DNA of 64,000 nucleotides from IMG/VR virus record IMGVR_UViG_3300010413_002638, positions 32,001-96,000 of that record. The stretch is one strand, 5' to 3'. Source of the stretch: a virus. Shown one piece after another: positions 8,299-30,486 of the stretch. The position numbers were made by a program, and so were the translations under genes. The notes beneath the pieces were generated by a model, which did no database searches, was not told where the DNA came from, and worked only from the letters and a program-made list of their open reading frames with translations. Within the stretch, counting starts at the first letter, position 1. Each line of letters begins with the position of its first letter.

Positions 8299-9135
8299 CT
8301 ACTCCAAGTTCATAAATGGAATAGTCAAATCAGTATATTCACTCTGGAAGCCAACTACCTTATATTTATTGATCAGACGATCAACTTCGCCTTTTACGTA
8401 ATTGACTTTCCTAGACATCACTTTTTGAATATAAATCCTATTGGCCAATAGCCTCGGACATAGCGACAAATCAATTAATAACATATTCCTCTGAAATAGC
8501 CGCCGCCCATGCGTTTCTATGAATTCTTGGAGGCCGCCGTTTTCTAAAATGGCGGTACTCTTAACCGGCCCGATACCATAATACCCATCAATAGAATCCG
8601 CTTTGTCTCCGACCAATGCTTTTTGCATGATCGGATTGTTGACGGGGACGGCCATTTCTTCTTGCTTTTTGGGGTCATAGACCTTCGAGCTAGAAAACCA
8701 AAATGGTATCTGCACCATATCCGAGTCTGTGGAGATTATCACGGATTGATGTGGGTGGCGAACCAAAGTCGCAGCATAGATGAGGTCGTCGGCCTCCATT
8801 TGTTTGCGGCTATACTGCCGCACGCCCATCACTTTGAAGAATGCTTTGGCCACCTGTGTCGTTCTGGCGAGATCTTCCGAAATATCTTCGACGTATGTGC
8901 TAGTAGATCTGTCTTTGTACGTCTCAAGCACCATTCGTCGCCAAACAGTGTGACGAGGGGCGTCCCAGAAAATATGCACAGACTCTGGGCGATATTTGTT
9001 CATCCAGGAAGTGAGCTGTCGTAAGAATATCACGAAGTAATGATATTTTATGGTATGACGGCGATCAGCTTTGACAGCGTAAATCGCCCGATACAGCGCG
9101 TTCCGGGCATCTATGAATAGGGCTGGCTTTGTCAT
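8299..9135 (-). CDS. 5'-3' exonuclease / flap endonuclease (T4 RNase H, PolA 5'-exo family)
   Basis: FIDARN, FWD...WR...YK, EADDLI, STDSD, ALVGDKADSIDGYYGIGP (H3TH). Confidence 0.92.
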   Translation of the reverse strand: MTKPALFIDARNALYRAIYAVKADRRHTIKYHYFVIFLRQLTSWMNKYRPESVHIFWDAPRHTVWRRMVLETYKDRSTSTYVEDISEDLARTTQVAKAFFKVMGVRQYSRKQMEADDLIYAATLVRHPHQSVIISTDSDMVQIPFWFSSSKVYDPKKQEEMAVPVNNPIMQKALVGDKADSIDGYYGIGPVKSTAILENGGLQEFIETHGRRLFQRNMLLIDLSLCPRLLANRIYIQKVMSRKVNYVKGEVDRLINKYKVVGFQSEYTDLTIPFMNLE

Positions 9136-9203: not shown

Positions 9204-10391
9204 CTAGTCATCGTCATCTTCCAGTTGGTTCAACAATGCATCAATTTCAGACGATCCAACGTCATCATCATCGTCAGCATCGTCAGCATCGTCATCGTCA
9301 GCATCATCACTGTCAGACTCGTCATCTTCTGGACTATCGAAGTCTTCATCATCAGTCACTGGCTTCTGATCTGGAAGATCATCGTCGTCATCGACGATAG
9401 CATCGTCGTCATCGTCAACGACTTCATCGTCTTTAGGCTTATCCTTCTTGGGCTTATCCTTCTTAGCCTTGTCCTTGGCCTTCTCTTCCTTATCCTTCTT
9501 GACCTTATCCTTGGCTTTATCCTTGGATTTACCCTTGTCCTTTTTGGCTTCCTTTTCGTCGTCATCGCCTACGGTTTCATCGTCATCGAATCCACCGTCG
9601 TCATCGTCGTCATCGTCTCCGTCACTCATGATCCGGAAGGCCCGCTGAATCTTCTCTTCAGTAGGAACTTCGATCTTATCCCACAAATTGTGGCGAAGCG
9701 TCAGCAACTTGGCGATATTCTTCTCGTTCGGTTCACCCTTCTTGCCGATCATCGGAATCGGGATACCATCCGTGGTAATGAACTTGCTGGTCTTGTAGCT
9801 ATTATTCTTTCCTTGCTTCAAGGATTCCAGCTGGAACAAAAAGGCAGCATTTTCGTCGAAGAAGACACCGTGAGCCTGTGGCTCGTCCTCGTCGCCCTTG
9901 TCGTCCCGCAGCAACGCAGCTGTCCAGATATCGAAACAGGTCTTCGGGGCATTGTAGAACTTCACCCGCCCGCGAAGATCTTCCGGGTTGCCTTCCCACT
10001 TGGTAAAGTAAACGTTCACCATATAGTAAGTGGTTGGCATCCATTGCTTCACGATAGCCCGACGTGTTTCCTCGTCGGTCTCATCTTTAAGCAAATCGAA
10101 TCCTTCCGTACAGATGGGGCAATCACTGTTGTCCCACACCCGTGGACAGGGCGTCGGCTTGTTGTGAATCCAATGGTCGGCGTGTGCAATAAAGAATTGA
10201 TCCATTGTATTTTCAACGGTACCACTCTTCAGCACATCGCCTTTCATTAACGGCGGGAGGACAAAGAACCGATATTTGAGCGGTTCTGTGGCCGATTTGG
10301 CGTTGTCCGGACGAAACTGGTCGGGATCGTTGAATTTCCCGCCCATCGACTGCTTCAATCTCTTTCTGATGGCTTCAACATCGTATGGCAT
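9204..10391 (-). CDS. single-stranded DNA-binding protein, T4 gp32-like, with a long acidic/KD tail
   Basis: RFFVLPP, HW...CPR...CPIC, YYMVNVY, SYKTSKF, acidic tail ending IDALLNQL; neighbours a UvsY-like gene; AGGAG RBS. Confidence 0.8.
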   Translation of the reverse strand: MPYDVEAIRKRLKQSMGGKFNDPDQFRPDNAKSATEPLKYRFFVLPPLMKGDVLKSGTVENTMDQFFIAHADHWIHNKPTPCPRVWDNSDCPICTEGFDLLKDETDEETRRAIVKQWMPTTYYMVNVYFTKWEGNPEDLRGRVKFYNAPKTCFDIWTAALLRDDKGDEDEPQAHGVFFDENAAFLFQLESLKQGKNNSYKTSKFITTDGIPIPMIGKKGEPNEKNIAKLLTLRHNLWDKIEVPTEEKIQRAFRIMSDGDDDDDDDGGFDDDETVGDDDEKEAKKDKGKSKDKAKDKVKKDKEEKAKDKAKKDKPKKDKPKDDEVVDDDDDAIVDDDDDLPDQKPVTDDEDFDSPEDDESDSDDADDDDADDADDDDDVGSSEIDALLNQLEDDDD

Positions 10392-10420
10392 ACTTTCAAC
10401 TCCTGAAACAAAATCAACAA

Positions 10421-10951
10421 TCAACTCTTATCCTGCTCTTGCCGCTTGAAACCAGCCAAAGAGCGAGATAACTCAGCTTTCATCTTAAGCGCCTCCAGCA
10501 TGTGGAAGAGCTTACCAGCTTTCATCTGAAATTCTTGCAGCTTTCTGTCAGCTTTCACCAGTGCTTCATCAGCTTCAATCAAATGTTTTACTTGTTCAGC
10601 GGTAAATCTCACCTTGTTATCGCGGGCTGATTCTTGAACAGCCCTGATAGCTTCTGCTCTACGTACCTTCACAGCACGCTCAGCGACAGCTACCATATTT
10701 CGGCACTCCGAGTAAGCAGCGGACCAAAAAGCGTATTGCGACGGCAAGTCCTGGATTTGTTCCTCTAGCAGGTCATAATCCAAGTCCAAATCCGGCAAAA
10801 TATCGACCTCGATAGTGCGATTCTTCTTCGTTTCCGGGTTGACCGCGTTCAGTTTCACCTTGAAGCGGAACAACGTCGATTCCACTAGCTCCTTAGGGAT
10901 ATTGTCGGATATCCACTTTGGAAGAACAGTATTGTCAGGAATCTTCGTCAT
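10421..10951 (-). CDS. UvsY-like recombination mediator (helical)
   Basis: LEEQIQDLPSQYAFW...IEADE coiled pattern; adjacent to SSB. Confidence 0.6.
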   Translation of the reverse strand: MTKIPDNTVLPKWISDNIPKELVESTLFRFKVKLNAVNPETKKNRTIEVDILPDLDLDYDLLEEQIQDLPSQYAFWSAAYSECRNMVAVAERAVKVRRAEAIRAVQESARDNKVRFTAEQVKHLIEADEALVKADRKLQEFQMKAGKLFHMLEALKMKAELSRSLAGFKRQEQDKS

Positions 10952-11217: not shown

Positions 11218-12411
11218 CTATCTATATATACGATACAATTTCCACTTCTTCCACTTCTTACCGATGCTTACCTTCACCGGGAAAGTCGGATTATCATCCA
11301 ATATTCCCTCAAATGGACGCAACATAATATTGGCAACTTGTTCGATAACCCAATTCATATGTTTCGTATTGGGAGCACAAGAAACAACCAAAGAGTCGTG
11401 AATTTCTGCGACTATTCGCGGACCAAGTTTCTCCCAAATCCGTCTAATTACTAGTTGCATAGCATGGGCAACCGAGCCCTGCATGGCACCGTTCAAGGCA
11501 GCAAGCTCGTTCTTAGCCTGACTACTTCGGAATTTTCTACCCAAAATAGTTTCCACATAGCCGTCATCTGCCTTCAGGGCACGCTTGCAATTACGTATCC
11601 ATTGTCCTAGTCTCGGATAGATCGTAGCCAATGGTATACTGCCAAAGTCCATCGAGTTAATAGATTTCAACAAAAATCTTTTGCTTTCCTCACGGGTCAT
11701 TTCACCCACAGCATCGGCATTAATCACATTCATCATATAGGTATATGGATCAGAATCAACGAATGATCTCGTGAGATCTTCATCATTCGACAGCAAAGAT
11801 GCAACTCTAATATCGGCACATATCCAATCAAAATGCAATAAATAATAATTATCGTGACAATTAGTAGGCCATATCATCACCTCATCAGCCAGCCCCTGAA
11901 TATTGAAGCCGGTGGTTTTGCTACGACCCGAGAAAGTACGTTGCGAATAAATAGGATTTACCGGCATATAATTATACATAAGGCCGGTTCGTTCCAAATC
12001 TTCATAGACAATAGCGGCGTTTGCCAAAACTTTCTGATATTGACGCGGAGTTTGCTTGGCCATCTTGTCTAAAATCTTGGCCAATATAGCAGAATCTTTT
12101 TCTAAGTCAACGGTCGGTTCTATAATAGGGAAGTGCAGATCGTAGACATTGTACGGCTTCACATCTAGCGGAATATCGAATGCTTTGACGCTCGTTTTGA
12201 AGTCAGAAGTGACAACCGAAATGCCGCGATTACTAGCAGCTATGATCGTCTTACGAACATCACTAATAGATTGAAAAACATCAGCTAATAATCGGCCAGC
12301 ACCAGGCCGATAGTGCTCACGTATGATAGTCTCGTTGCCGATTTTTATACCGGTACAGCGGGGCTTGCCGGTGTGCTTATCATAGAGAGTGTAAACATAG
12401 ATAGCTCGCAT
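11218..12411 (-). CDS. minimal divergent family A DNA polymerase
   Basis: TFSGR, motif A FDWICADIR, motif B REESK, GYVETILGRK, NGAMQGSVAH, motif C EIHDSL. Confidence 0.8.
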   Translation of the reverse strand: MRAIYVYTLYDKHTGKPRCTGIKIGNETIIREHYRPGAGRLLADVFQSISDVRKTIIAASNRGISVVTSDFKTSVKAFDIPLDVKPYNVYDLHFPIIEPTVDLEKDSAILAKILDKMAKQTPRQYQKVLANAAIVYEDLERTGLMYNYMPVNPIYSQRTFSGRSKTTGFNIQGLADEVMIWPTNCHDNYYLLHFDWICADIRVASLLSNDEDLTRSFVDSDPYTYMMNVINADAVGEMTREESKRFLLKSINSMDFGSIPLATIYPRLGQWIRNCKRALKADDGYVETILGRKFRSSQAKNELAALNGAMQGSVAHAMQLVIRRIWEKLGPRIVAEIHDSLVVSCAPNTKHMNWVIEQVANIMLRPFEGILDDNPTFPVKVSIGKKWKKWKLYRIYR

Positions 12412-13394: not shown

Positions 13395-13604
13395 TCAGAT
13401 CTTGCAAGTAGCCAGCATATCGTCTAATGTGGCAGCTGGCTCTTTCAGAAAGACCACTTTCGTCTTGCGTTTGGGGATAGTTGGAGTGTTGGGGACTTGT
13501 ACTTTCATTGCCGAGCCGTCGGGTTGCACCGCAAATCCAGTCCGCCGCATTGTCTCAGCAATAGTATCAGCCACATCGACTTCAATGACAACGCGAAGTT
13601 TCAT
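13395..13604 (-). CDS. hypothetical protein
   Basis: ATGA overlap with the helicase gene, GGAGG RBS. Confidence 0.6.
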   Translation of the reverse strand: MKLRVVIEVDVADTIAETMRRTGFAVQPDGSAMKVQVPNTPTIPKRKTKVVFLKEPAATLDDMLATCKI

Positions 13605-14938
13605 ATGTCCTCCCGCACCACCATGGTATTGTAATTTATGACACAGTCGATCCGCTCAGCACGCGGACCGTTCCTGTTTTTGGCTATGTACATCGTAATG
13701 CGAGGAGGTTCCGCACGACGTTGGGTTCTGTTCTGATTAAGACTAACCACATAATCCAAAGCAAACTGCTTCCCAAAGCTCTCCGCCGCCTTGTTGAGGT
13801 CGGCCACTTCTTCGCCGGAAGCCCCACTCCTATTCGTCTGCGTAGCCGTGAAAACAAGAACATTTTCATTTTTTGCTAAACCACGCAGCTCGTTAGCAAC
13901 ATGTTTTTGGCGCGTGTAATCGTCCTTGTTATAGCCCTGGTTTCGACTAACCATCAAATCCATGTAATCAAGAATGACAACATCTGGACGAAAAGATTTG
14001 GTCCTTCGCAAGTTGTCTAACAAAGCATACACATGAGCGACACTACACTCATCAGGAGCCCATTCGAAAATAGCAAACCGCTTGTTGTAAGTCTGCTTCA
14101 TCTTACTAACAATGCGGCGGATAAAATCCTGATGCTCCATAATGGCATTTATGGGTGTATCCGTAGCCGCTCCCAAGCACCGCATAGCAGTCTTCAGCGT
14201 ATCCAACTCAAAAGTGATTAACAACACATTTTGGCCGGGAGTACCATCTGGTCCGATACCAGTCAAAGAAGAGATTGCATTGTTGCACAACAGGATCGAC
14301 TTGCCAACATTAGTCCCCGCCAACCAACATACCACCTCCTTAGGCGATGGGCCACCATTGTTCAACATGCGGTCTAATCGCGGGAAACCGGTAGTGCGAT
14401 GCTCAATTACGTCCGGTTCAAACAAAGCCTCAAAATTCTCAAAGAACCAGAAGCCCTGCTGGCCAACATCAGCGATACGATTGGCCTGTTTGATGATTTC
14501 TTCGAGTTGATCATAGTCGCCACGTGCGTAAGCTTCTTGGGCTTCATCGCTGTAAAGTAATCCATAGGCTCTATCGCGTGCCCACCGCAATAATGTATCC
14601 TTGATAAGCGGTACGTCGCGTGGGTCGGAATTGCGATCGACTACAGTTATGACGTTTTCATAAGGATCGTCCTCGGTAAAAGATCGCAATAATCGATCGC
14701 GGAGCATAGGCCGCGTCGGAACGACGCCGTATTTCTCATAAGAGTTGAGAATCTCCGCCATTACCCATTGGCATTCCATTCTCGCAAACATGGATGGCTG
14801 CAAGAATCTGCCAACACTAGTGAAGAATTCTGGATGATCGAAAGCTAGAGAAACAATCGATTCTTCTTCGTAAGGGGCGAATGGTTGGTTAGACTCAACA
14901 TCCGTCTCAGAGAGCCTGCTAAGCGTATCTGTTATCAT
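13601..14938 (-). CDS. replicative DNA helicase (DnaB / T4 gp41 family)
   Basis: TTGFPRLD, Walker A AGTNVGKS, ITFEL, ILDYMD, ELRGLA, TATQTNR, AKNRNG. Confidence 0.93.
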   Translation of the reverse strand: MITDTLSRLSETDVESNQPFAPYEEESIVSLAFDHPEFFTSVGRFLQPSMFARMECQWVMAEILNSYEKYGVVPTRPMLRDRLLRSFTEDDPYENVITVVDRNSDPRDVPLIKDTLLRWARDRAYGLLYSDEAQEAYARGDYDQLEEIIKQANRIADVGQQGFWFFENFEALFEPDVIEHRTTGFPRLDRMLNNGGPSPKEVVCWLAGTNVGKSILLCNNAISSLTGIGPDGTPGQNVLLITFELDTLKTAMRCLGAATDTPINAIMEHQDFIRRIVSKMKQTYNKRFAIFEWAPDECSVAHVYALLDNLRRTKSFRPDVVILDYMDLMVSRNQGYNKDDYTRQKHVANELRGLAKNENVLVFTATQTNRSGASGEEVADLNKAAESFGKQFALDYVVSLNQNRTQRRAEPPRITMYIAKNRNGPRAERIDCVINYNTMVVREDI

Positions 14939-15276
14939 TATTCAGTAGTATCCGGGCACAGACCCGTTCGTTGTAGTTGTATTCTTTCCAGTGCACGTTG
15001 GGCATTTGCTTCCGCTAGAGCCAAAGCATCACAATGTGTGATAAGCTCGCTTTCGGTGTAATACAGCGTCTTAGCATGTACGGCAGTAATCCGATCTCCG
15101 TAATAAGCCACCGCTGTTGGTTGAGCGCGACCGGCCCTGACGGTGTACAGCCATTGTCCCTGGCTCGAGCCCCACATCGCACCGCTTATAATGACCGCCT
15201 CTAGATGCCCAATGGCGGCTGATTCGCGCAAATAAACGGGATCGCCAATATCGTATTTAGGGGCATCCATTATCAT
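14938..15276 (-). CDS. hypothetical protein
   Basis: Overlap-coupled between recA and the helicase gene. Confidence 0.6.
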   Translation of the reverse strand: MIMDAPKYDIGDPVYLRESAAIGHLEAVIISGAMWGSSQGQWLYTVRAGRAQPTAVAYYGDRITAVHAKTLYYTESELITHCDALALAEANAQRALERIQLQRTGLCPDTTE

Positions 15277-16391
15277 TCCTCTTCCAACTCATCCAATATA
15301 TCGTCAACACTACGAGAGGCGTCCCCTTCGTCATCCTTCTGACAATGGAACACCATACTGTAGGTTTGTTGTTCGATTTGCTTATATAGTTCTTCATTCT
15401 CCCTCAGAGCAGCGGAAGCGTTGGCTTCGCCATTCCCTAACACCTTACCGTCAAACCGATAGAAGCTTCCCTTCTTTTTTACTATATTGAGTTCCTCCGC
15501 TACGCTCAGTAGAGAAGCTACTTCGTCGATGCCAAAGACAGGCATAGCTGGTTTGCCAAAACAGATATTATAGGTCCCGGTGGCGAAAGGGGCAGCAGCT
15601 TTGTTTTTAACCATCTTGATGCGAGTGGTAATCCCCACTGGCTCATCGCTGCTTTTGATAATGGATGCTCGCGAGACTTCGGCCCGCACGGTAGCATAAT
15701 ATTTGAGGGCTCGCCCGCCAGGCGTGGTTTCTGGATTACCGAAAACCACGCCCACTTTCTCGCGGATCTGGTTGATGAAAATGACGGTGGCCCGAGCATT
15801 AGAAGCCACACCCTTCAACTTCCGCAGGCCCTGACTCATCATGCGAGCCTGGGCTCCGATGTGGGAATCACCTATCTCACCCTCTAGTTCTGCCCTCGGC
15901 ACCAGAGCGGCTACCGAGTCTACCACTACCAGATCTATCCCGCCAGATTTGAGTAAGTCCTCAACGATATTTAATGCTTCTTCACCACAATCTGGTTGGG
16001 AAATGAAGAGCTTCTCCATATCCACGCCGTTTTTACTCGCCCATTCTGGATCAAGGGCGTGTTCAGCGTCGATGAAGGCGGCTGTGCCATGTCTGTCTTT
16101 TTTCTTGAAGAAATGCCGTTGGCAGGCAGCGATAAATCGCAGAGTGGTAGTCGTCTTACCGGAGCTTTCGGTACCATATAATTCCATTATTCGTCCCAGC
16201 GGTACTCCGCCGCAACCAAAAGCCTTATCGATAGTGATTATACCAGTCGGAAACGAGTCAATGTCTACGATAGCATGGCGGCCTCTGATGATGGACCCGG
16301 CACCGTAGCGTTTATTCAGATATTCCATTAGTTTCTCGGGATCGTTCGTTGGCACCTCTTTGTCTGTCTTTTTGTCCGTTTTCTTTGCCAC
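15273..16391 (-). CDS. recA: recombinase RecA
   Basis: GTESSGKTT, FIDAEHALDP, SQPDCGEEAL, VDSVAALVP, FINQIR, TPGGRALK; GTG start after GGAGGT. Confidence 0.97.
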   Translation of the reverse strand: MAKKTDKKTDKEVPTNDPEKLMEYLNKRYGAGSIIRGRHAIVDIDSFPTGIITIDKAFGCGGVPLGRIMELYGTESSGKTTTTLRFIAACQRHFFKKKDRHGTAAFIDAEHALDPEWASKNGVDMEKLFISQPDCGEEALNIVEDLLKSGGIDLVVVDSVAALVPRAELEGEIGDSHIGAQARMMSQGLRKLKGVASNARATVIFINQIREKVGVVFGNPETTPGGRALKYYATVRAEVSRASIIKSSDEPVGITTRIKMVKNKAAAPFATGTYNICFGKPAMPVFGIDEVASLLSVAEELNIVKKKGSFYRFDGKVLGNGEANASAALRENEELYKQIEQQTYSMVFHCQKDDEGDASRSVDDILDELEEE

Positions 16392-16641
16392 GCGATAACC
16401 TCCCAAGTCTACTCGTCAGGCGTGATATATCATAACCAGCTATTTTTAACACGTCTGAGACTGGCACTTTGATAACAACATTACTGCGCACCAACAACAG
16501 GTCTTCCTTGACTATCGCTGCCACCGACCAAAAGCCTTTCGGATCTATTTCCGCACCAGGTGGAGCTGATAAATAATCTATATTTTTGGTAGATAATAAT
16601 CGAACCTGGTCGAACCTGGATATCTTGATTTGGTCGTCCAT
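16312..16641 (-). CDS. hypothetical protein
   Basis: First gene of the minus-strand replication run. Confidence 0.55.
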   Translation of the reverse strand: MDDQIKISRFDQVRLLSTKNIDYLSAPPGAEIDPKGFWSVAAIVKEDLLLVRSNVVIKVPVSDVLKIAGYDISRLTSRLGRLSRGKENGQKDRQRGANERSRETNGISE

Positions 16642-19482: not shown

Positions 19483-19709
19483 AAACCGTGATTTGCCAAC
19501 ACTTCATAAATACGGTCTATCGTTCTCTGACTCACACCATTAATAGTAAGTAATTGTTTCTTGGTGCGAGCGAGCAGCATGCCCAGATTATGAATTCCAT
19601 TACTATCCAAAATGCCTGCGATAGTAGCACTCAGACCAGCATCCTGACAAGGTATATCTAGCTTAGCTTCTAATTCTTCCCGAGAGAATTGTGAGTAGTG
19701 TTTTGCCAT
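19476..19709 (-). CDS. stand-alone RNA polymerase alpha-CTD-like protein
   Basis: GLSATIAGILDSNGIHNLGMLL...LLTINGVSQRTIDRIYEVL matches the alpha-CTD HhH pattern. Confidence 0.75.
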   Translation of the reverse strand: MAKHYSQFSREELEAKLDIPCQDAGLSATIAGILDSNGIHNLGMLLARTKKQLLTINGVSQRTIDRIYEVLANHGFY

Positions 19710-20479
19710 TTGGTGCGTAAGACCTTAACCAATTCACACATCACTCTTATCTGATCCTCGAAAGCCGCCTTGCGGCTTCCATCGCGAAAATTAACCGGTG
19801 ATGGGTGATAAATCGCAAAGACGCCCACGCCAAATTTCTCGCTCTTGGTAATCTTCTTCAGCGACGGGCCAAAATCAACACCAGGGCATAATTGCGTAAA
19901 CGATACCGCCCCCAGCGCTATAATTAGTTTTGGCCGCAGCAAATTGATCTCCATACACAAGAAAGGCTCGCAACGATCCATATGACGCTGCGTCGGCCTC
20001 TGATTTCCTTCCGTATAGCAACGCACCGTATTACAGATATAGAACCAATCCCTCGAAACACCGTGCTTCTTTATTTCCGTATCGAAATTATTACCAGCCG
20101 CCCCCACAAAAGGCTCATTCTTCTCCAATTCGTTCCAACCCGGATTCTGCCCCACGATAACAAAAGGTGAGGGATTCATATTACTCAGCACATGTGGGTC
20201 GCGGATTTCATTTTTGCGTTCCGCACCTTTGATGCCAAGCTCGCACATACTACACGCTGTGCAAGTAGTAGAAAGCTGACGAAGCATACGCAATTTGCGA
20301 TCTCGCCACGCTTCTTTACCGACGTCAAGAACGCTGATGAAATCTGGCACGAATACCTCGGCTGGTGCTGTGCTAGTGAAACCAAACCAATCGAAATTCC
20401 TCAGCTCATCCAGAGGATCACTGGGTTCAGGGGTCTCAATACAAGCGAATCTTTTTCGGTAGGCTTCATATTTTGACAT
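19670..20479 (-). CDS. uracil-DNA glycosylase family 4 (Fe-S)
   Basis: CSMC, GQNPG..E....EPFVGAAG, YICNTVRC...N..P...C, YHPS. Confidence 0.92.
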   Translation of the reverse strand: MSKYEAYRKRFACIETPEPSDPLDELRNFDWFGFTSTAPAEVFVPDFISVLDVGKEAWRDRKLRMLRQLSTTCTACSMCELGIKGAERKNEIRDPHVLSNMNPSPFVIVGQNPGWNELEKNEPFVGAAGNNFDTEIKKHGVSRDWFYICNTVRCYTEGNQRPTQRHMDRCEPFLCMEINLLRPKLIIALGAVSFTQLCPGVDFGPSLKKITKSEKFGVGVFAIYHPSPVNFRDGSRKAAFEDQIRVMCELVKVLRTKWQNTTHNSLGKN

Positions 20480-22117: not shown

Positions 22118-22851
22118 TCTTCTGCTAAATCACTGTCATCGAAGTTGGCTGACTCTTCCTGCTCCTCCACTGGTCCCGCCGCGTCAATAAGCTTCTGCCA
22201 GGCTTCTTCGTTGGCGTCTTCGGCCATATCATCTGACGCCTGCTGTAGTGCATTACCAACGAAATCTGTACTGCTTGCCTTTTTCTTGGGGACCTTCTTA
22301 GGAGCCTTTTTGGCGGCTTTCTTAGCTGGCTTTTTCTTGGTACTCTTCGGCTTTTCCTCTTGCTCTTCTTTAGGCTCGAGAACGTCAATCAGGTCTTGGT
22401 CCACCTCGGGCTCAGAATCGCTCGGAAGGGCTTCCGATGGCTCCTCGAGGGCCTCCGCCAAGTCATTTACATCGATTCTATCGCCAATGGGTTCCCCGGA
22501 GGGTGTTATCGGTTCATTAAAGTCATGCAACAAGGGGTCCAATTCTGACGCCGGAACCCTCCCGGATTCAATGGGATTATTAAATGGATCGTTGATGACC
22601 GGCTCAGGAGGAATACAATGCTCGCAAGAATAATGTACCGGCTGAAAAGGCGGGTCCATCAACTTCACATGCACGACCAATCCCTGCCCGCAATTGGGGC
22701 AAACCGTCGATAATTTACTCGGCTTGACAATATTCCCAAAAGCATTTTCCATTGTGTTGTGGTCAGCGATCGGCGTGTCGAATTCGATCGGACGACCAAA
22801 TATTTCAACGCCATTGATAACCATCGGAACCAAATCGTATGGATTGTACAT
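22114..22851 (-). CDS. Zn-ribbon protein with an acidic and K/A-rich disordered tail
   Basis: CPNC...CEHC; KKPAKKAAKK. Confidence 0.7.
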   Translation of the reverse strand: MYNPYDLVPMVINGVEIFGRPIEFDTPIADHNTMENAFGNIVKPSKLSTVCPNCGQGLVVHVKLMDPPFQPVHYSCEHCIPPEPVINDPFNNPIESGRVPASELDPLLHDFNEPITPSGEPIGDRIDVNDLAEALEEPSEALPSDSEPEVDQDLIDVLEPKEEQEEKPKSTKKKPAKKAAKKAPKKVPKKKASSTDFVGNALQQASDDMAEDANEEAWQKLIDAAGPVEEQEESANFDDSDLAEE

Positions 22852-22858
22852 TTCTCAC

Positions 22859-23413
22859 CTATGATTGCGTGGACCACTTGCCAGCTGACTTGCGAATCTG
22901 CTCAGCCTTCTTACGTAGCCCCAAAAAGGAATCTTCTGACAAACTGAACTCCAAAAATCGATCATCAGTATGTATCGACGCTGGTTTTACATAATTTGTG
23001 TTGCCACACGAACAAGCCTTGTCCGCATCAAATGTCTTCTTTTGGCACTTAGTGCAAATATTCGGTTGCCCAGCCATTCTGACATCGACCTTGGTCGCAG
23101 TGCAATAATAATAGCTGTAATTCGCCCCAAATTTTTCACCAGTGAGTTCACAAATATGTGGAGCACGTTGCCGTCGTGTTCCCGACATCACGAGCTTATA
23201 ATTATTGATTATTTGCTGACTCAGTGTTGAAAAACACGCCGTGCAGATGTCCAACGAAAACACAATTTGTGAGTGATACAGCGTATCCAAGCCAGGCATA
23301 CGACCGTCAGTCACTGTAATATGCCGGAAATCAAACGAATAATAGATAAAATCATTGCGATAAGAAGCACCACAATGATCGCAAGCTATCCCACTTCTGT
23401 CACTGGTTTGCAT
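22859..23413 (-). CDS. Cys-rich hypothetical protein
   Basis: Several CxxC pairs; GGAG RBS. Confidence 0.65.
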   Translation of the reverse strand: MQTSDRSGIACDHCGASYRNDFIYYSFDFRHITVTDGRMPGLDTLYHSQIVFSLDICTACFSTLSQQIINNYKLVMSGTRRQRAPHICELTGEKFGANYSYYYCTATKVDVRMAGQPNICTKCQKKTFDADKACSCGNTNYVKPASIHTDDRFLEFSLSEDSFLGLRKKAEQIRKSAGKWSTQS

Positions 23414-23427
23414 AAATAGTCTCCATA

Positions 23428-26172
23428 CTATTTATTCAACTTCTCCATCCTCTCCGCCTCATAGGCTTCTCTCCAACCACGATGGAGTAGTTTAATAATT
23501 ACCTCACCTCGCACCAAAGTGAAGGTATTGCGCATCTCATCATATTCGACAAAGAGCTGCACACCAGTACCAGGTTGCTGGATCATCTCTAAATCCTGCA
23601 TCAACAGAGCCTTGCCAAAAAGCATCACCAGAGTGCTTTGGATGCCGTCACTAATCACCAGTCTACCGTATGGCTTGTTGTTCTTTGATTCCGCCATTTC
23701 AAAACCTATGATAACGCCCTCCAATTTGGCCTCACCATTCTTAACGGAATTCACTTTCGCATCTTCAATAGTGCAACCGCCCTCTATCTCATACACATCC
23801 AAAGGAGAGTGTAAATAATATCCAAGATATTCCTTCTCGAACTCAAGCATTTGTTCAATAGTGAAGTCCTCTGGAAACAAGGACATTACTTTCTCGGGAG
23901 AATCATCAGGGACCGGCTTCCAATTCTCCATTTTGGTCGGAACCTTGCGGCGATTTGGATATGCTTTGAAATATTCATCAATTTGGCGTTGACGTTCTTG
24001 TTCGATAGCTTCGTCCGTCCAATCATCCAGCAGCAACAATTTTCGCCTTATCTCCTGGCGGAGCTTGGTGATGTCCTTGCCACTGCAATATTTGTACCTG
24101 TAATACTCCCAAGTCGCCTGAGCATTTTCGTATCCTGGAAACTGCCTGAATGACCCCAATTTGATGAAACGCTCAAAAACCGACTTGTCCTTCCCTGCCG
24201 AGTCAACCATATCATCCAAAGAAGTAAATTGCCGTTGGCTGGTCCATTTTTTAGCGGCAACATCGCCCAACCCCTTGATGCCAATCAAACCCTGGTTCAC
24301 CACATCGCCCGTAACCGTGAAATTGGCGGTCATATTCTCCACATTGATCGTGTCGAACTTCACGCCACGAGCACGTTGCTTCGGTTGGAACTTGCCACAA
24401 TACGTGATATCCGTCGGTTCCCAGTTCTCAGACCGTGCCACGCCCATATAACGAACGAGTTTGTCCGGATGGCAATCGCTCATCACCGCCGCCCAGAACT
24501 CTGGCGCGAAATGAGCCTTCAACCATAAACATCGATGAGCCACCAGGCAATAACTGACAGCATGGCTGCGGTTAAACGCATATCGCCCAAACGTCTCCAT
24601 CTTCGTCCACCACTGCTCCGCTTCCTGCTCACCCAAAACACGCGAAGCACCGCGTACCCATTTCTCCTTGATGGGCTTGAGCTTGTGCGTCCATTTCTTG
24701 GCTACAGCCTTACGAGCCTCCTGAGCCTCCGGAGCCGTAAAACCAGCCACAAGCTGCCAAATAGCCTGCAACTGCTCCTGATAAACAATGACTCCATAAG
24801 TGTCTTTCAAGACACTAAGAATATCCGGATGTAATTTCTTCTGCCAACGGCCTGATGTATCATCGCGGTTTGCCACCGCATCCGGAATAGAGGCCATAGG
24901 ACCAGGATGCCCCATGGCATTAAAGAGCATCAGATCCTCAAAATTCCGTACACCATTCTGCAAGATACTCTTGGCCAGATTCGTATCGAATTGAAAAACG
25001 CCATCTGTCTTCTGGGCGTTTGCCAGTGCAAGCGCGTACTCGTCATTTAGGTCAATATATCGTTTATTCCCGTCGCCGTCGAAGAAATGACCAGCTCGGC
25101 TTTGTGTAGGATCAATATCATCCCATCCGTCCATGTTCTTGCCAAAAGAGATACCACGATTCCGCTCGATCAATTTGCAACATTCGAAGATATACTTGAG
25201 CGTCTTGAGACCGAGAATGTCCCACTTAACATAACCAAACTTGGACAGCTGTGTGTTACGGCCTTCCGTCCACATGCTGATCCAATAGCCACCCTTCTTG
25301 CTCTTAGCCAGCGGAATATTGCCGTAGAGAGAGCGATCGGCAATAATCAGGGCACCAGCGTGCATACCCATATTGCGAACGCGACCTACCAACTTGACCG
25401 CATAATCAACGATCTTAGGGTGCTTCTTGGCGAATTTGAGGAGATCTTCATGGTCTCGCAGAAGTTTACCAATAGTAATTCCATCTGTGTCAGCAGATCC
25501 GCATTTAGGGCACTTGGTAGCGTTATGCGAATGCCCACATTCAGTCTCTTCACCGGTATCTGCATTGACGACACGGCCCTTACAATTAGACTTGCCTCCA
25601 TCCTTTAGATCATCCACTTCATCCGGCAGATTGGTCGTAAGTGATAAAATCTCCTGTTTATCCAGCCAGCCGGTGGCGGCACAGACATCGATAAGAGCAG
25701 ATCGGAATTTGTAGGTTGTCCATGTGCCCACACTGCAGACAGCACCATAACCGTCTTTGATGTGCGCACCGAATTTCCGCATCGCATATTCTTTAATAGG
25801 ATCACGGGCTTCCGGTAGACAATCTATATCAATATCCGGTTGGTCTGGATCTTTGATGAGATCAGGCGGGATAAAGCCCTGGTCGCGCTTGAAATCTGAT
25901 ACCACAGAAGCCCGCACGCTATTGAGCATGGGCGTGGTGCGAGCAGCAATCGGGTCTCCTTCGACCATTCCCAACAACCACGGCAACAAAAGAAAGTTGG
26001 GATTAGAAGAGAATTTCTTGCCGTCGTTGTAGAGATTCGTCCAGTAAGTGATAGCACCTTGCTTCTCAACTTCCTGGATTTCGAATTTCAGCCGTTCTTG
26101 ATACTCTTGGCCGTTCTTGCGATTTGCTTTGTTTGCTATCTCTTTGATTTCTTGCCAAGAGACTTCAGCCAC
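23428..26172 (-). CDS. dnaE: DNA polymerase III alpha, C-terminal part (palm catalytic Asps, fingers, HhH, OB)
   Basis: PDIDID, GMHAGALII, KWDILGLKTL, GVFQF, TYGVIVYQEQ, YAFNRSHAVSY, WLKAHF, GIKGLG, EKEYLGYYL. Confidence 0.93.
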   Translation of the reverse strand: MAEVSWQEIKEIANKANRKNGQEYQERLKFEIQEVEKQGAITYWTNLYNDGKKFSSNPNFLLLPWLLGMVEGDPIAARTTPMLNSVRASVVSDFKRDQGFIPPDLIKDPDQPDIDIDCLPEARDPIKEYAMRKFGAHIKDGYGAVCSVGTWTTYKFRSALIDVCAATGWLDKQEILSLTTNLPDEVDDLKDGGKSNCKGRVVNADTGEETECGHSHNATKCPKCGSADTDGITIGKLLRDHEDLLKFAKKHPKIVDYAVKLVGRVRNMGMHAGALIIADRSLYGNIPLAKSKKGGYWISMWTEGRNTQLSKFGYVKWDILGLKTLKYIFECCKLIERNRGISFGKNMDGWDDIDPTQSRAGHFFDGDGNKRYIDLNDEYALALANAQKTDGVFQFDTNLAKSILQNGVRNFEDLMLFNAMGHPGPMASIPDAVANRDDTSGRWQKKLHPDILSVLKDTYGVIVYQEQLQAIWQLVAGFTAPEAQEARKAVAKKWTHKLKPIKEKWVRGASRVLGEQEAEQWWTKMETFGRYAFNRSHAVSYCLVAHRCLWLKAHFAPEFWAAVMSDCHPDKLVRYMGVARSENWEPTDITYCGKFQPKQRARGVKFDTINVENMTANFTVTGDVVNQGLIGIKGLGDVAAKKWTSQRQFTSLDDMVDSAGKDKSVFERFIKLGSFRQFPGYENAQATWEYYRYKYCSGKDITKLRQEIRRKLLLLDDWTDEAIEQERQRQIDEYFKAYPNRRKVPTKMENWKPVPDDSPEKVMSLFPEDFTIEQMLEFEKEYLGYYLHSPLDVYEIEGGCTIEDAKVNSVKNGEAKLEGVIIGFEMAESKNNKPYGRLVISDGIQSTLVMLFGKALLMQDLEMIQQPGTGVQLFVEYDEMRNTFTLVRGEVIIKLLHRGWREAYEAERMEKLNK

Positions 26173-26534
26173 TTTTGATATTCCTCTAACTTGTCAGCAT
26201 GATTACTTTTTACATGCAGCGTCCGCCCACTAGTGCTAGACATAGGTTTGTTGCAAAATGGACAACACAGCTGATCGGTCGGAGCTGGTTCTGGTACTGG
26301 TTCCACCTGTGTGGGTCTGGGAATAGTATCTGGGTCCAATTCCCATGGTTGTATGGCAACCAATCTACCCTGGCGTTTTTCCATAGGTGCAGAATAGAGA
26401 CAATAACCAGCCTCCACTGCCCTATTTAGCAGCTCCTGATACTCTGAGTTATTCTTTAGTTTGTGCTGCGATATAATGCGGCTCGGTGGTTTAACCAGAA
26501 TGAAAGCAGTATGCTTGAAGTCAATCTTGTTCAT
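26136..26534 (-). CDS. C2H2 zinc-finger protein
   Basis: CPFC-x12-HVKSNH. Confidence 0.65.
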   Translation of the reverse strand: MNKIDFKHTAFILVKPPSRIISQHKLKNNSEYQELLNRAVEAGYCLYSAPMEKRQGRLVAIQPWELDPDTIPRPTQVEPVPEPAPTDQLCCPFCNKPMSSTSGRTLHVKSNHADKLEEYQKWLKSLGKKSKR

Positions 26535-26976
26535 CCGGCAAATGGTCCACAGTCTGTGAATCGTATTGTTGCTGAGATAGACAAATCCTGCTCGCTAGCG
26601 ACCGGCAGACAGCAAGATTTTCGTTATTGGGCGAATCAACTACAAATCCGACATCTTCGAAGAACCCCACCCATCGTACGAACTCATCTATCTCCTGCTT
26701 GTATCCTTTCACATCGCCCCTCAAATAATTTAATACTGTCTCGTCGGGGAAGTGCATAATTATTTTAAGTTTTCGACAGGCCGGATTAACAGCGGCCAAA
26801 GCCAATTTAGCAGCCTGGATCTTAGCCCTATCGATCTCGGAACCACCTAGCCCAAAACCCAACAACCGACACCGCACCTGGTCATTAGAGCTAAACATTA
26901 GAAGAATACCACACGAACTCAATTGCATGACCTCGTTGGCATTCCTGATAGAAATCGCACAGAAAATATCGATCAT
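26521..26976 (-). CDS. RNase HI-fold protein, apparently lacking the catalytic carboxylates
   Basis: Motif spacing of RNase HI (IFCAIS..CGILL; DRAKIQAAKLAL; IMHFPD; NENLAVCRSLA) with D/E positions replaced. Confidence 0.5.
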   Translation of the reverse strand: MIDIFCAISIRNANEVMQLSSCGILLMFSSNDQVRCRLLGFGLGGSEIDRAKIQAAKLALAAVNPACRKLKIIMHFPDETVLNYLRGDVKGYKQEIDEFVRWVGFFEDVGFVVDSPNNENLAVCRSLASRICLSQQQYDSQTVDHLPDEQD

Positions 26977-27467
26977 AGTAGATTATTCTTGAGATCTCGG
27001 ATCTCTGGGTAAGTCGATTTGGTATACGATTGTAGGGCACGCAACGCCTCAGCAATCCCCCGCAAAACAGCATTTTTTGCCGCTCGCTTGTCAGGTAGAC
27101 CCCGCGACCTACCCACCAACACCAACAATTGATCGGCGTGAGCCTTCACGTTGTCCGGGAATGTCTCATCCTTGGCTTGGGCCTTTATCATCCGTTCATC
27201 AAAAGAACGCTGTAGCCAAATAGCCAAAGATTCAATCACGTGGAAAGACAAATCAGCACATTCTTTCTCCACCCTGGCGAGGCAAGTTTTTCTATTACCC
27301 TCATTCTCCAAGGCGTTATACAAGTCATCCACCACATCAAGTAATTTCACCAGGAACACTGACAACTGGGGGCTTGGACCGCCCTGCAGCAGAACATGTG
27401 TATAGATGGAATGCTTCAATTCAGCAAGAGATTCGGTGGCCGACGGGCCAATAGGTGTCTGCATCAT
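26973..27467 (-). CDS. hypothetical protein
   Basis: Overlap-coupled within the operon. Confidence 0.6.
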   Translation of the reverse strand: MMQTPIGPSATESLAELKHSIYTHVLLQGGPSPQLSVFLVKLLDVVDDLYNALENEGNRKTCLARVEKECADLSFHVIESLAIWLQRSFDERMIKAQAKDETFPDNVKAHADQLLVLVGRSRGLPDKRAAKNAVLRGIAEALRALQSYTKSTYPEIRDLKNNLL

Positions 27468-28885
27468 TACTCACTCGGCATTTTGACGTTCAACATGTAT
27501 CCACCACGGCTCGACGCCAGGAACCGGTCAAACGAAAGACCCCACAACAATGGGTCCAAGACGTGAATCCCCAGCAGAAAACAAACCAGCGAACCGCCAG
27601 CACTTCCACGTGGACTGAAAGGCCAACCTCGTTTCTTTCCGTACTTAATAAGATCCTTGGTGATAAGGAAGTAGCTAGCGAACCCTTTATCAATAAACCG
27701 GTTCAATTCAATACTAGCCTGTTCCCTATAAGTCACCTCGCGGCCATCGATGAGAAATTTGGTCTTACATTTCTCCAATCCACGCCACCGCAATTCCTTA
27801 ATGACCAGTTTACACAACTCATTATCAGCATCAGATATCTCGGGATATTTGGGAGCAGTATCAACACCAAATTTCTCACAGCGATCGGCAACCATTAGGG
27901 TATTATCGCACAATTGATCAAAAGTTCGGTTGTCTATGCCGTTACTGTAATTGCCGTTACGGAACGTGGCCCATAATTCTGCCCGCGACTTCATGAATTG
28001 TTCATCACTATTGACATGGAATAGATCCGGCGAATCGATGGTTGTTTCCTGGGCGACAGCCATCATCAGTTTCTGCAATATGAAGTCAGCTCGATTGAGA
28101 TAATGACAATCATTGGTGAGTACAACAGGAATCTTGAAGAAATCAGCGATAGATATCAACTCACGAAATACCTTATCATCCTCTGGGATGCCAGGCATTT
28201 GAACTTCAAGATAATAGTCCTGGCCGAATGCTTTCTTGAACTTCTTGATGTATTCGACAGCCGCGTCTAATCTGGCCTTCTTTTTCCGCTCGACCAGAAC
28301 CTTTCCTTCTTTGTCGGTGAGCTGTTTATAGCGAAGCTCATGAGACACTGGCCCATTTAGACACCCAGACAACACTATGAGTCCTTCGCGAAACTCGCAA
28401 AGTTTATCGAACCAGATCCTATTGTATTGTGTACTACCCATACCGAATAGACCGGTCTCATAAGCTTGGGTTGTCAATCTTACGAGATTATGAAATCCGG
28501 TTTCATTCTTGCAAAGGACCGTCAAATGTCTATTGCGCCTGATACGGCTGGAAGTGTCTGGATTTTCTTCCTGCCATTCTTTCGAGCGAAATTTGATTCC
28601 TTTTGCCACCAGTTCTTGTCGTAATGGTTCGAAGTCATTGAAGTAAATTTCGCAACCTGGGATGTACTTCAAGCCGTGCTTCTTGAAGGCGAGATACATG
28701 TCAGGCACGGAAGCCATATGGCCGTGCTCTGTAGCACTCATAGCGGAGTAGCCGCGAGCTGCACATTGCTCGGCATACTGTTCTGGCGTAGCCACGCCGT
28801 CCAGAGCTGAAAAGACGGTGTGATTGTGCAGGTGCACGAAATCAGAAGGGCCGGTATATTCTTCAGGACTGAATTCTTCTGACAT
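27467..28885 (-). CDS. dnaE: DNA polymerase III alpha, N-terminal part (PHP domain to the RGS motif)
   Basis: FVHLHNHT, LDG, TEHG, GCE, HLTVL, SGC, NDCH, GFASYF, RGSAGGSLV, FDRFL; stops before PDID. Confidence 0.93.
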   Translation of the reverse strand: MSEEFSPEEYTGPSDFVHLHNHTVFSALDGVATPEQYAEQCAARGYSAMSATEHGHMASVPDMYLAFKKHGLKYIPGCEIYFNDFEPLRQELVAKGIKFRSKEWQEENPDTSSRIRRNRHLTVLCKNETGFHNLVRLTTQAYETGLFGMGSTQYNRIWFDKLCEFREGLIVLSGCLNGPVSHELRYKQLTDKEGKVLVERKKKARLDAAVEYIKKFKKAFGQDYYLEVQMPGIPEDDKVFRELISIADFFKIPVVLTNDCHYLNRADFILQKLMMAVAQETTIDSPDLFHVNSDEQFMKSRAELWATFRNGNYSNGIDNRTFDQLCDNTLMVADRCEKFGVDTAPKYPEISDADNELCKLVIKELRWRGLEKCKTKFLIDGREVTYREQASIELNRFIDKGFASYFLITKDLIKYGKKRGWPFSPRGSAGGSLVCFLLGIHVLDPLLWGLSFDRFLASSRGGYMLNVKMPSE

Positions 28886-29528
28886 TAGCCACTATTTCGT
28901 CGTTGATGTTGTACAATGACTGACTTCTAAACACTGTCTGGCACACTCGCTCGATCAACTCATTATCTAGGTCAGTCGTATCCGGGTAATTAGGCGTCGT
29001 TGGTTGTCTTCCCAAGCGGCGTATAAATCCTTCAAATATCGCTGCCGCGCTAGGCATATTAAAATTACAAGTTTGCCAAAATCTGCATAAGTAATTATAT
29101 AGCCTATTTCTGCCACCTTTCTTCAATAACCTGTCGAAGTTATCAACAATAGATTTTACGTGGATCTCTTCTATTTTGGCGGGATCGATCAACTCGATAA
29201 AGTAAGACCTGGCGTAATCGTTGGTGAGATCTGTTTGAAAGATCGTTCGCCTGGACTCTATTACGGCTTGGGTAATTAATTGGCGAACGTTTTCTGCTGA
29301 AAGCCCACATGATAACCCAACGGAAAACGCCTTACTCATATCGCGTAGGCCACGCAACGAATGCCTTTGATCGGTCTTTGCTTGCAACCAATTATCGAGA
29401 TTCGGCACCACCATCTTATGCAACGTATTATCAAATAGTTCTGGTAGATTCGCACTGTCGCGGAAATAAAATAGCTCTCCATCGATCTCGAAAACAGTCA
29501 CCGTTTTCTCAACATATCTAATAATCAT
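28863..29528 (-). CDS. hypothetical protein
   Basis: Long ORF upstream of dnaE-N; start uncertain. Confidence 0.6.
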   Translation of the reverse strand: MIIRYVEKTVTVFEIDGELFYFRDSANLPELFDNTLHKMVVPNLDNWLQAKTDQRHSLRGLRDMSKAFSVGLSCGLSAENVRQLITQAVIESRRTIFQTDLTNDYARSYFIELIDPAKIEEIHVKSIVDNFDRLLKKGGRNRLYNYLCRFWQTCNFNMPSAAAIFEGFIRRLGRQPTTPNYPDTTDLDNELIERVCQTVFRSQSLYNINDEIVANVRRIQS

Positions 29529-30486
29529 GTTATCTAACAATCGAAGAAGAGAAATAAGCGTCGTTGTCGTTTGCGGCGACCAATACCACGATTATCTCCG
29601 AACAGCTATAGACAGCATTCGAAGACAAACCATTCAGCCAGATGAGATAATAATAGTATACGACAACACCGAGCCAAGTATGACCTCCTACCCATATCTA
29701 CAAACACACAATGACAACCCTCTCGCCAGCCGCAGGGACGGATTTGCCGCTACCAGCAAAGAAACAGTCTTTTTCCTAGACGCCGACGACTATATCAGCG
29801 ATGATTATATCGGTTCTGGTCTGGCCCTCAAAACCGACAACAACATAGTCTACTCAGACGTCCGCCTCTTCGGAACAATGAACAAAACATTACGTTATTC
29901 ACCCAAATTCATGTCCCAAGAAAACTATCTGCATGTAGCCAGTCTCATCAGTCGCGACGCAATCGACATAGCAGACGCCTTCAACCCAATACCACCAGTC
30001 GATTGCCATGAAGACTGGGTATTCTGGCGGCGATTATTAAAAGCCGGATGCCCAACTATCAAACAACCTGGCATCCACTACCACCGAGAACATGAACACA
30101 ACCGTTCCAAGAAAATCGTGCAACACGAATTTCCCATAGCCAAGGGAATCTGGTGTGATACTATTGGCTTCGTTCGCGCGGACGGCCAAGAACACGAAGA
30201 GCAAGTCTTACAACAATGGCCACCAGAACAGAGAGAATTATACACCATAGATAACCCGGATATCAGAGCAATCAACAAAATCCTCCAGAGAACAAACGCT
30301 GACTATTTGTTATTCTATAGCACAAAAGACCTACAAATGATTAGAATGATGGCAGATCTAGACTACGGTGTGGCAATTGTCCAAGCCCGTGATTTACCAA
30401 TGTGGTATGGAACACTCATCGTCGTTGACCTACTCAAAGCTCAATCACCGTCTTACACGTTTAACGGCAAATCGATACTGGTCTAA
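29527..30486 (+). CDS. glycosyltransferase family 2
   Basis: ISVVV, SIRRQT..PDEIIIVYD, FLDADD, HEDW. Confidence 0.88.
   Translation: MLSNNRRREISVVVVCGDQYHDYLRTAIDSIRRQTIQPDEIIIVYDNTEPSMTSYPYLQTHNDNPLASRRDGFAATSKETVFFLDADDYISDDYIGSGLALKTDNNIVYSDVRLFGTMNKTLRYSPKFMSQENYLHVASLISRDAIDIADAFNPIPPVDCHEDWVFWRRLLKAGCPTIKQPGIHYHREHEHNRSKKIVQHEFPIAKGIWCDTIGFVRADGQEHEEQVLQQWPPEQRELYTIDNPDIRAINKILQRTNADYLLFYSTKDLQMIRMMADLDYGVAIVQARDLPMWYGTLIVVDLLKAQSPSYTFNGKSILV

Follow-up and report, generated by a model that had tools for sequence, protein, structure and literature searches.

The stretch of viral DNA analysed here, hereafter the window, covers 64,000 nucleotides (positions 32,001 to 96,000 of IMG/VR virus record IMGVR_UViG_3300010413_002638) and contains two separate genes, named N and C, that match different parts of the alpha subunit of DNA polymerase III (DnaE). 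The source record is 112.8 kb long and has a CheckV completeness estimate of 32%, which points to a jumbo phage origin. Three small genes, g1 to g3, lie between N and C (Table 1). The order N-g1-g2-g3-C is tightly packed, with consecutive overlaps of 1, 4, 14 and 37 nucleotides, the last one between g3 and C. Gene C has a GTG start codon preceded by a Shine-Dalgarno-like GAGGA 8 nucleotides upstream, and no terminator-like sites were found between the five genes. Given the overlapping stops and starts, co-translation of the five genes is probable.

Table 1. Genes and features of the split dnaE locus and of the replication genes in the same window (amino acid positions, aa, refer to the protein encoded by the respective gene).
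Feature	Position in window	Strand	Description
Gene N (472 aa)	27467..28885	-	PHP exonuclease domain and N-terminal palm subdomain of DnaE; end precedes PDxDxD
PHP domain, N aa 18-229	28199..28834	-	Pfam PF02811
Palm-N segment of N, aa 379-460	27506..27751	-	PF07733 positions 16-98; RGS loop and FDRFL
Clade-specific C-terminal tail of N, aa 458-472 (SRGGYMLNVKMP...)	27470..27514	-	Residue conservation and complex model
g1 (164 aa)	26973..27467	-	Conserved helical protein; no family match
g2 (151 aa)	26521..26976	-	RNase H-like fold (ESM Atlas)
g3 (132 aa)	26136..26534	-	Small protein, conserved C2H2-type zinc finger (CPFC...H....H)
Gene C (914 aa)	23428..26172	-	Extension, Mg-binding palm, thumb with zinc insert, fingers, HhH, OB
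N-terminal extension, C aa 1-108	25849..26172	-	Diverged palm-N paralogue without GPGRGSAAGS loop (by profile and predicted fold)
PDIDID, C aa 112-117, catalytic D113, D115, D117	25822..25839	-	Invariant in 29 clusters
Zinc-ribbon-like insert, C aa 191-232	25477..25602	-	Cys/His conservation
KWDILG, C aa 316-321, third catalytic Asp D318	25210..25227	-	Invariant in 29 clusters
UDG-family protein	19670-20479	-	Replication/recombination module
RecA	15273-16406	-	Replication/recombination module
DnaB-like helicase	13601-14938	-	Replication/recombination module
PolA-like protein (397 aa)	11218-12411	-	Family A polymerase profile positions 248-380, E=8e-13
gp32-like SSB	9204-10424	-	Replication/recombination module
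FEN	8299-9135	-	Replication/recombination module

An initial annotation, made from the nucleotide sequence alone, described the genes between the two halves as three unrelated genes. Three genes are indeed present, but this understates them, as they form a block that is conserved in the clade and one of them has an RNase H-like fold. Orthologues of g1 are 35-67% identical and hold the same position in relatives; searches of Pfam, PHROGs, NCBIfam, PDB sequences and the ESM Atlas assigned g1 to no family. In the latter resource, g2 reaches a feature score of 0.93 against clusters named 'ribonuclease H' and a structural TM of 0.82 against PF00075 clusters. Its first catalytic Asp is not conserved in the orthologue alignment and the expected Glu is a Gln in the window; from these residues, g2 may be a non-catalytic subunit. 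No endonuclease family match was found for g1 to g3 in Pfam, PHROGs or NCBIfam. Three imperfect direct repeats of 32 nucleotides (63-72% identical) occur at 26087-26118, 26164-26195 and 26425-26456, encoding the similar peptides KNGQEYQERLK (C extension), DKLEEYQKWLK (g3 end) and KNNSEYQELLN (g3, before the end); they probably reflect chance or a shared helical motif.

Partition of DnaE between genes N and C

The upstream gene had been described as a PHP domain with metal ligands followed by RGS...FDRFL and a stop just before PDID, and all of these elements are present in N. The PHP domain is matched by PF02811 with E=1e-33. Nine residues (H18, H20, D29, H54, E79, H120, C175, D259 and H261) are invariant in 27 N clusters, the last two being located just past the Pfam span. 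We read them as the HHDHEHCDH signature, the PHP metal-binding motif quoted in PMC12926913. The RGS loop lies in PRGSAGGSLV, with R426, G427 and S428 (nucleotides 27602-27610) invariant in the same 27 clusters, and no part of N is better conserved than the palm-N/RGS block (79% mean pairwise identity versus 66-70% elsewhere). The protein ends in ...GGYMLNVKMPSE*. Relative to the canonical FERFLNPERVSMP, its tail (SRGGYMLN..MP) carries a conserved clade-specific insertion, and in the tail R460 and G462 are invariant, with G461, Y463, L465 and N466 nearly so.

The same initial annotation assigned all three catalytic Asps and a Cys/His insert to the second gene. Both are found in C: PDIDID and KWDILG with their invariant Asps, and an insert in which C197, C212, C221 and C224 are invariant and H216 nearly so (29 clusters), with short beta strands at residues 195-211 of the model. 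The fingers and HhH families are recognized by Pfam (PF17657, E=9e-30; PF14579, E=5e-8), and the FNRSH motif is unbroken at residues 533-537. The C model matches Thermus aquaticus (Taq), Escherichia coli and Mycobacterium tuberculosis (Mtb) DnaE with Z 19-21, and its C-terminal part matches OB folds with Z 10-11.6.

Three profile sets divide between the two proteins at the same place. PF07733 (DNA_pol3_alpha) aligns its positions 16-98 with residues 379-460 of N and its positions 100-260 with residues 110-321 of C. The PHROGs profile phrog_405 aligns positions 42-439 with N and 440-1029 with C, and NCBIfam PRK05673 (1146 positions) aligns 5-398 with N residues 15-460 and 401-1031 with C residues 111-861. 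Since this partition is non-redundant, N and C together correspond to exactly one DnaE with nothing missing, and the first ~105-108 residues of C are extra. The features of the C family are all found, namely the nine-ligand PHP domain, the palm RGS loop and three Asps, and the fingers, HhH and OB domains, with the palm motifs distributed over two polypeptides. The catalytic subunit of C-family DnaE is defined as a single polypeptide; here it is encoded by two open reading frames with three genes between them.

The N-terminal extension of gene C

The extra residues at the start of C had been interpreted as a decayed second copy of the block preceding the split, lacking RGS. Direct comparison provides little signal: BLASTP of N against C gives E=2.4, a comparison of small profiles of the extension and N gives P=0.003, and Pfam detects DNA_pol3_alpha in one of 11 single extensions (E=0.17), while an 11-sequence HMMER profile of the extension found no DnaE among PDB sequences. 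Profile-profile comparison by hhalign, using 29 extension sequences and 80 contiguous bacterial DnaE sequences, gives a probability of 91.9% and E=7.1e-7 in the palm-N register, with an 11-residue gap in the extension that corresponds exactly to VGPGRGSAAGS; the reversed-extension control gives E=0.28. The contiguous DnaE of LR756511.1 (1179 residues) is aligned by N residues 18-463 and by C residues 7-791, and both alignments cover its residues 333-436. In single-sequence BLAST the extension falls at ~305-399 of many of the 80 bacterial DnaE sequences, and PF07733 runs across the extension in two orthologues.

The predicted fold is consistent with this. Modelled alone by AlphaFold2, the extension is a compact helical domain with a predicted local distance difference test (pLDDT) of 92.5 and a predicted TM score of 0.82. 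In a fold search against 48,161 PDB chains, only C-family polymerases occupy the first seven ranks (Mtb DnaE1, PolC, and E. coli and Taq Pol III alpha), with Z 6.1-3.7 and 94-104 of 105 residues aligned, whereas the next, unrelated row has Z 3.6. These matches begin at the start of the palm (residue 280 in E. coli, 308 in Mtb and 297 in Taq). The Z values are modest for a helical domain, and it is the exclusive occurrence of C-family polymerases among the top rows, rather than the size of Z, that argues for homology with palm-N. Foldseek gave no significant match with the extension (E 4-8), though three of its four rows were DnaE. Profile and modelled fold thus both identify the extension as a divergent second palm-N segment that has lost its RGS loop. 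A conserved loop (K52, F54, N57) occupies the former position of the RGS loop.

The second copy and its loss of RGS are therefore upheld by hhalign and the fold search, but the term decayed does not apply to what is a conserved and confidently folding domain. Over 29 clusters the extension has a mean pairwise identity of 43% with many invariant residues, compared with 61-68% for the catalytic parts of C and 37% for the OB domain. Its HMMER profile retrieves 147 proteins among 1.84 billion representatives. The match starts within the first 30 residues of these proteins except in two, where it starts at 50 and 62, and in none of the 147 does the extension lie inside a contiguous DnaE. A search for a direct repeat between the two palm-N copies at the DNA level gave matches of chance size only.

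A family of stand-alone proteins of ~130 residues (P0376-P0428, alignment A5) consists of the extension domain followed by a Hint-like beta tail of ~50 residues, and one member carries the Joint Genome Institute name 'intein/homing endonuclease'. Such genes occur at the usual start of C, after N and two small genes, on two contigs that end before the downstream gene (L027:2791-3195 and L028:1375-1761). The Cys expected at an intein start is present in only some members; the proteins may reflect an intein, split or degenerate, lying between the extension and the polymerase core.

Distribution of the split and inteins in relatives

At least a dozen related contigs in IMG/VR carry N, g1-g3 and C in the order seen in the window. 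A large protein collection contains at least 120 N clusters (at 90% identity), 63-98% identical, and at least 120 C clusters, 48-80% identical, on contigs of up to 438 kb. The number of clusters, combined with the invariant RGS, PHP ligands and Asp triad, indicates that both halves are under selection. Of the longer proteins related to N, the best 40 (39-73% identity) represent N genes with inteins and contain no fingers or HhH. No fused N-C form was found in the clade among longer proteins; the next matches are contiguous bacterial DnaE at no more than 35% identity. Two near-complete relatives (408 kb and 354 kb, 100% and 98% complete) have one N and one C each, and family B polymerase (PF00136) is absent from the five related records searched, which include these two. 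One relative encodes N and C at a distance of 58 kb and in opposite orientations, which excludes joining in cis there, so that N and C must act in trans. The same architecture is thus shared by many independent contigs, and the contiguous dnaE in relatives that would have spoken against the initial annotation was not encountered above 35% identity. As far as these sequences tell, the division of dnaE into two genes, shared with hundreds of metagenomic relatives, is an old one that has become fixed across a large jumbo phage clade.

Megablast of GenBank phages gave no match, hence no cultured close relative in that collection. Pseudomonas 'phage' Y1, picked from among many Pseudomonas matches, was considered as another case of a split and rejected, its DnaE being contiguous and host-like. 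One C gene (L030:1616-3321) shows a frame change just after PDIDID, giving two overlapping open reading frames (tblastn residues 5-133, then 139-538), which is likely a sequencing error.

The absence of an intein from the split, as annotated, was corroborated. No Hint, intein or homing-endonuclease family was detected in N, g1-g3 or C of the window with Pfam, PHROGs or NCBIfam, while the same Pfam search does find inteins in relatives. Rfam detected no intron or other RNA family over 22500-29800 at E up to 1.

The inteins of the relatives reside at other sites. In-frame inteins occur in N genes at the most conserved motifs (L020:7989-9887, L021:4845-8663). One relative's N has a mini-intein of 165 residues exactly between RG and S of RGS, whereas another N, of 1272 residues, has two inteins: one follows the PHP motif PGC, the other contains a LAGLIDADG domain. 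In total, at least 40 protein clusters represent intein-bearing N. In three relatives (L018:11680-16347, L008:7992-14927, L021:10680-15584) a naturally split intein divides C a second time, between residues 535 and 536 (FN(R/K)|SH), so that DnaE comes in three pieces; the split-intein site of cyanobacterial DnaE lies a few residues away. The first piece of C ends in ...GRYAFN(R/K), followed by an IntN of ~105-120 residues that opens with CL(N/D)KDT, its Cys being intein position 1. At the beginning of the last piece stands MKI..RSLG...SPEM...HN...VH(K/R)N, with HKN or HRN as the intein end, and the piece continues with SHAVSY, where Ser is the following residue. Between the pieces lie 1.9-4.1 kb of other genes.

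Probable assembly of the two chains and comparison with other split polymerases

A complex of N with residues 1-520 of C was modelled using a separate alignment for each chain. The model has an ipSAE of 0.85 versus 0.00 for the best control; 58 of 80 solved complexes pass the mark used for this score, as do 2 of 110 mismatched pairs. Runs share at least 91% of contacts and the partner pLDDT is at least 81. In the model, the PHP domain of N packs on C residues 283-300, and N residues 412-415 pack on C residues 126-129, in the helix after PDIDID, with an expected error of 0.7-0.8 Å. The RGS loop (N 419-429) shares the interface with PDIDID (C 104-119) and the region of D318 (C 300-325). Extension residues 30-69 and 86-101, including the conserved loop K52...N59, contact N, and the tail of N participates with residues 458-470 and 472, the pair N:465/C:34 having an expected error of 0.8 Å. 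When C is modelled alone, the palm core (residues 107-153 and 264-319) has a pLDDT below 50 and the remainder folds well.

We consider it likely, from sequence comparison and modelling, that N and C form a heterodimeric polymerase of the C family (DnaE type) with a composite active site, in which the extension serves as a docking piece and which arose by duplication and fission. In solved DnaE structures the RGS loop holds the phosphates of the incoming deoxynucleoside triphosphate (dNTP). Subunit N would contribute proofreading, through an active PHP nuclease, together with the first palm subdomain, which carries this loop, and subunit C the three metal-binding Asps, the thumb with its zinc ribbon, the fingers, HhH and OB. 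The two would assemble without covalent joining, such that the active site is formed from both. As to the origin, a partial duplication of the palm-N segment would have been followed by fission, the first 105 residues of C then being an old paralogue of the end of N. The duplication followed by complementary loss put forward in the initial annotation, with a C copy that lacks RGS, is retained as the most economical origin. Having lost its nucleotide-binding loop, the extension would be a compact domain that packs on N, including the N tail, and helps to hold the broken palm together; extension and N tail would be co-evolved docking elements.

Several points weigh against this interpretation. 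N and C are halves of a protein that has been solved as a single chain, hence the complex score may mirror known DnaE structures, and the pass that favours a two-chain site may stem from this likeness. The placement of the extension relative to N derives from interface lists and a single high-confidence pair. The extension resembles its own partner N less (profile comparison, E=0.021) than it resembles the bacterial consensus (E=7e-7), which makes a contribution from a second dnaE possible; the extension may then derive from a foreign gene rather than from internal duplication. Finally, DnaE need not be the sole polymerase, as a small PolA-like gene is present in all five genomes checked. Similarity of the PolA-like protein to the family A profile is confined to the final third of that profile, and each of the five related records contains it as an open frame, 398-450 residues long. 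A search of five related records for a DnaN-type clamp (PF02768), a weak test, was negative.

The initial annotation had also considered a separate PHP proofreader plus a polymerase that works without the RGS motif. With such separate jobs, N would be a free PHP 3'-5' exonuclease with a vestigial palm stub and C a self-sufficient polymerase, with the extension in the canonical place of palm-N. The palm of C does look topologically complete, the extension is colinear with palm-N and folds confidently alone, and its conserved loop sits where the RGS loop used to be. A vestige is nevertheless hard to reconcile with the RGS block being the most conserved part of N, R426, G427 and S428 being invariant. 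Moreover, the palm core of C is disordered without N, alignments of the C-alone model to DnaE begin at ~118-126 and leave the extension out, and the complex model puts N 412-415 on C 126-129, the RGS loop in the interface and the extension loop 52-59 in contact with N. Between the two options, RGS conservation, disorder of the C palm alone and the interface favour the two-chain site, and separate jobs appear unlikely to us.

It is far less probable that the halves are joined after transcription or translation into a single-chain DnaE, be it by an intron, trans-splicing, an atypical split intein or ribosomal bypass. Mobile elements do abound in the genes of relatives, such as the N inteins, one of them inside RGS, and the split intein of C at FN(R/K)|SH, and an HNH endonuclease gene breaks up the DnaE of a Bacillus phage. 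Yet the window has no Hint, intein or homing-endonuclease Pfam match, though those of relatives are readily detected, nor an Rfam intron. The tail of N does not have a Cys or Ser start followed by Hint blocks, and C starts with a palm-N homologue instead of an IntC and has no junction of HN plus nucleophile. Joining would yield a duplicated palm-N segment and would have to bridge three conserved protein genes or, in one relative, 58 kb and opposite strands. Assembly error or pseudogene decay as the source of the split hardly deserves credence: the sequence is indeed a metagenome-assembled fragment with a low completeness estimate, but the same architecture with intact frames and conserved catalytic residues is found on many independent contigs from different samples, and the overlapping starts and stops and the GAGGA before the C start do not fit decay.

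A further, improbable extension of the heterodimer is that the split is a functional design, in which the site closes only when the two subunits meet and the pseudo-palm extension acts as a placeholder or switch, either by stabilising C until N arrives or by letting the subunit responsible for proofreading and nucleotide binding be swapped. Genes g1-g3 would then encode additional replisome subunits, and the replisome might be tuned to a modified genome, a thought raised by the presence of a PurA/PurZ-family gene in all five genomes checked. This adenylosuccinate-synthetase-family gene lies at G000:C1:96614-97246, ~600 nucleotides past the end of the window, and also occurs in the four relatives searched (G001-G004), with two copies in G001.

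To our knowledge, replicative C-family polymerases are described as single catalytic chains. The nearest precedent is the minimal split Pol III alpha predicted in group 2.2 (T4-like) jumbo phages by Iyer, Anantharaman, Krishnan, Burroughs and Aravind 2021 (PMC7824862). In both systems the catalytic module consists of two stand-alone proteins, presumed to form one enzyme, without an intein. The published cut separates N-terminal NTP-binding from C-terminal Mg- and template-binding subdomains, which by description only fits the cut between RGS and PDxDxD reported here. According to PMC7824862, that system is a minimal core that lacks PHP and the other Pol III domains, is encoded by distant genes and accompanies a family B polymerase. 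The enzyme described here is in contrast full-size, with PHP, thumb, fingers, HhH and OB, and near-complete relatives have no PolB. Its halves are usually in one operon around three conserved genes, and C keeps a paralogous copy of the last segment of N.

The cyanobacterial DnaE is split in the fingers, just before CFNKSH in the Ssp and Npu DnaE exteins. Like the phage enzyme, it is encoded by two dnaE genes of which both products are needed for one polymerase, but its fingers split is healed by protein trans-splicing through Hint halves (Caspi et al. 2003, as cited in PMC3919608; NCBIfam entries PRK09532 and PRK07373). In the phage the cut is in the palm (between PF07733 positions 98 and 100), ~135 profile positions earlier; there are no Hint halves, FNRSH is intact within C and the chains would stay separate. 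The distinction from the cyanobacterial split-intein DnaE that the initial annotation had drawn is thereby borne out.

Other phage polymerase and reductase genes come in pieces as well, through the insertion of homing endonucleases or introns, such as the split gp43 and split NrdA of T4-related Aeromonas phages. The DnaE of Bacillus phage vB_BauM_KLEB27-3, interrupted by an HNH gene, is similar in that an essential replication enzyme is divided over two open reading frames with genes in between. Unlike genes interrupted by endonucleases or introns, the locus described here has no recognisable homing endonuclease between its halves and no detected intron; its split is ancient and fixed in the clade instead of sporadic, and is accompanied by a junction duplication of ~100 residues. 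The contiguous DnaE of LR756511.1 (a 595 kb uncultured phage), Mycobacterium phage Tonenili and Gordonia phage RedWattleHog have the same domain order and are 26-30% identical to N and C, yet each is a single polypeptide with one palm-N segment and no zinc insert. In two broad surveys of bacterial C-family polymerases, the sole variants of this kind to be mentioned are intein-split and frameshifted forms. A non-exhaustive literature search found no full-size, intein-free DnaE that is split through the palm and keeps a paralogous junction domain.

A practical consequence concerns annotation, as pipelines label the two genes 'DNA polymerase III alpha', or call one 'hypothetical', and may mark the pair as fragmentary. 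If the proposed heterodimer is correct, the locus would be a natural experiment indicating that the DnaE palm can be assembled in trans, and a clear fossil of gene fission by partial duplication in which the overlap was kept and put to new use. It would also provide a naturally split polymerase scaffold, from a gene family that in relatives contains inteins, and a split one, at further positions. The dNTP-binding loop and the metal-binding Asps of the polymerase would then be kept on separate proteins, with nothing rejoining them, throughout a clade of giant phages that is large and apparently successful.

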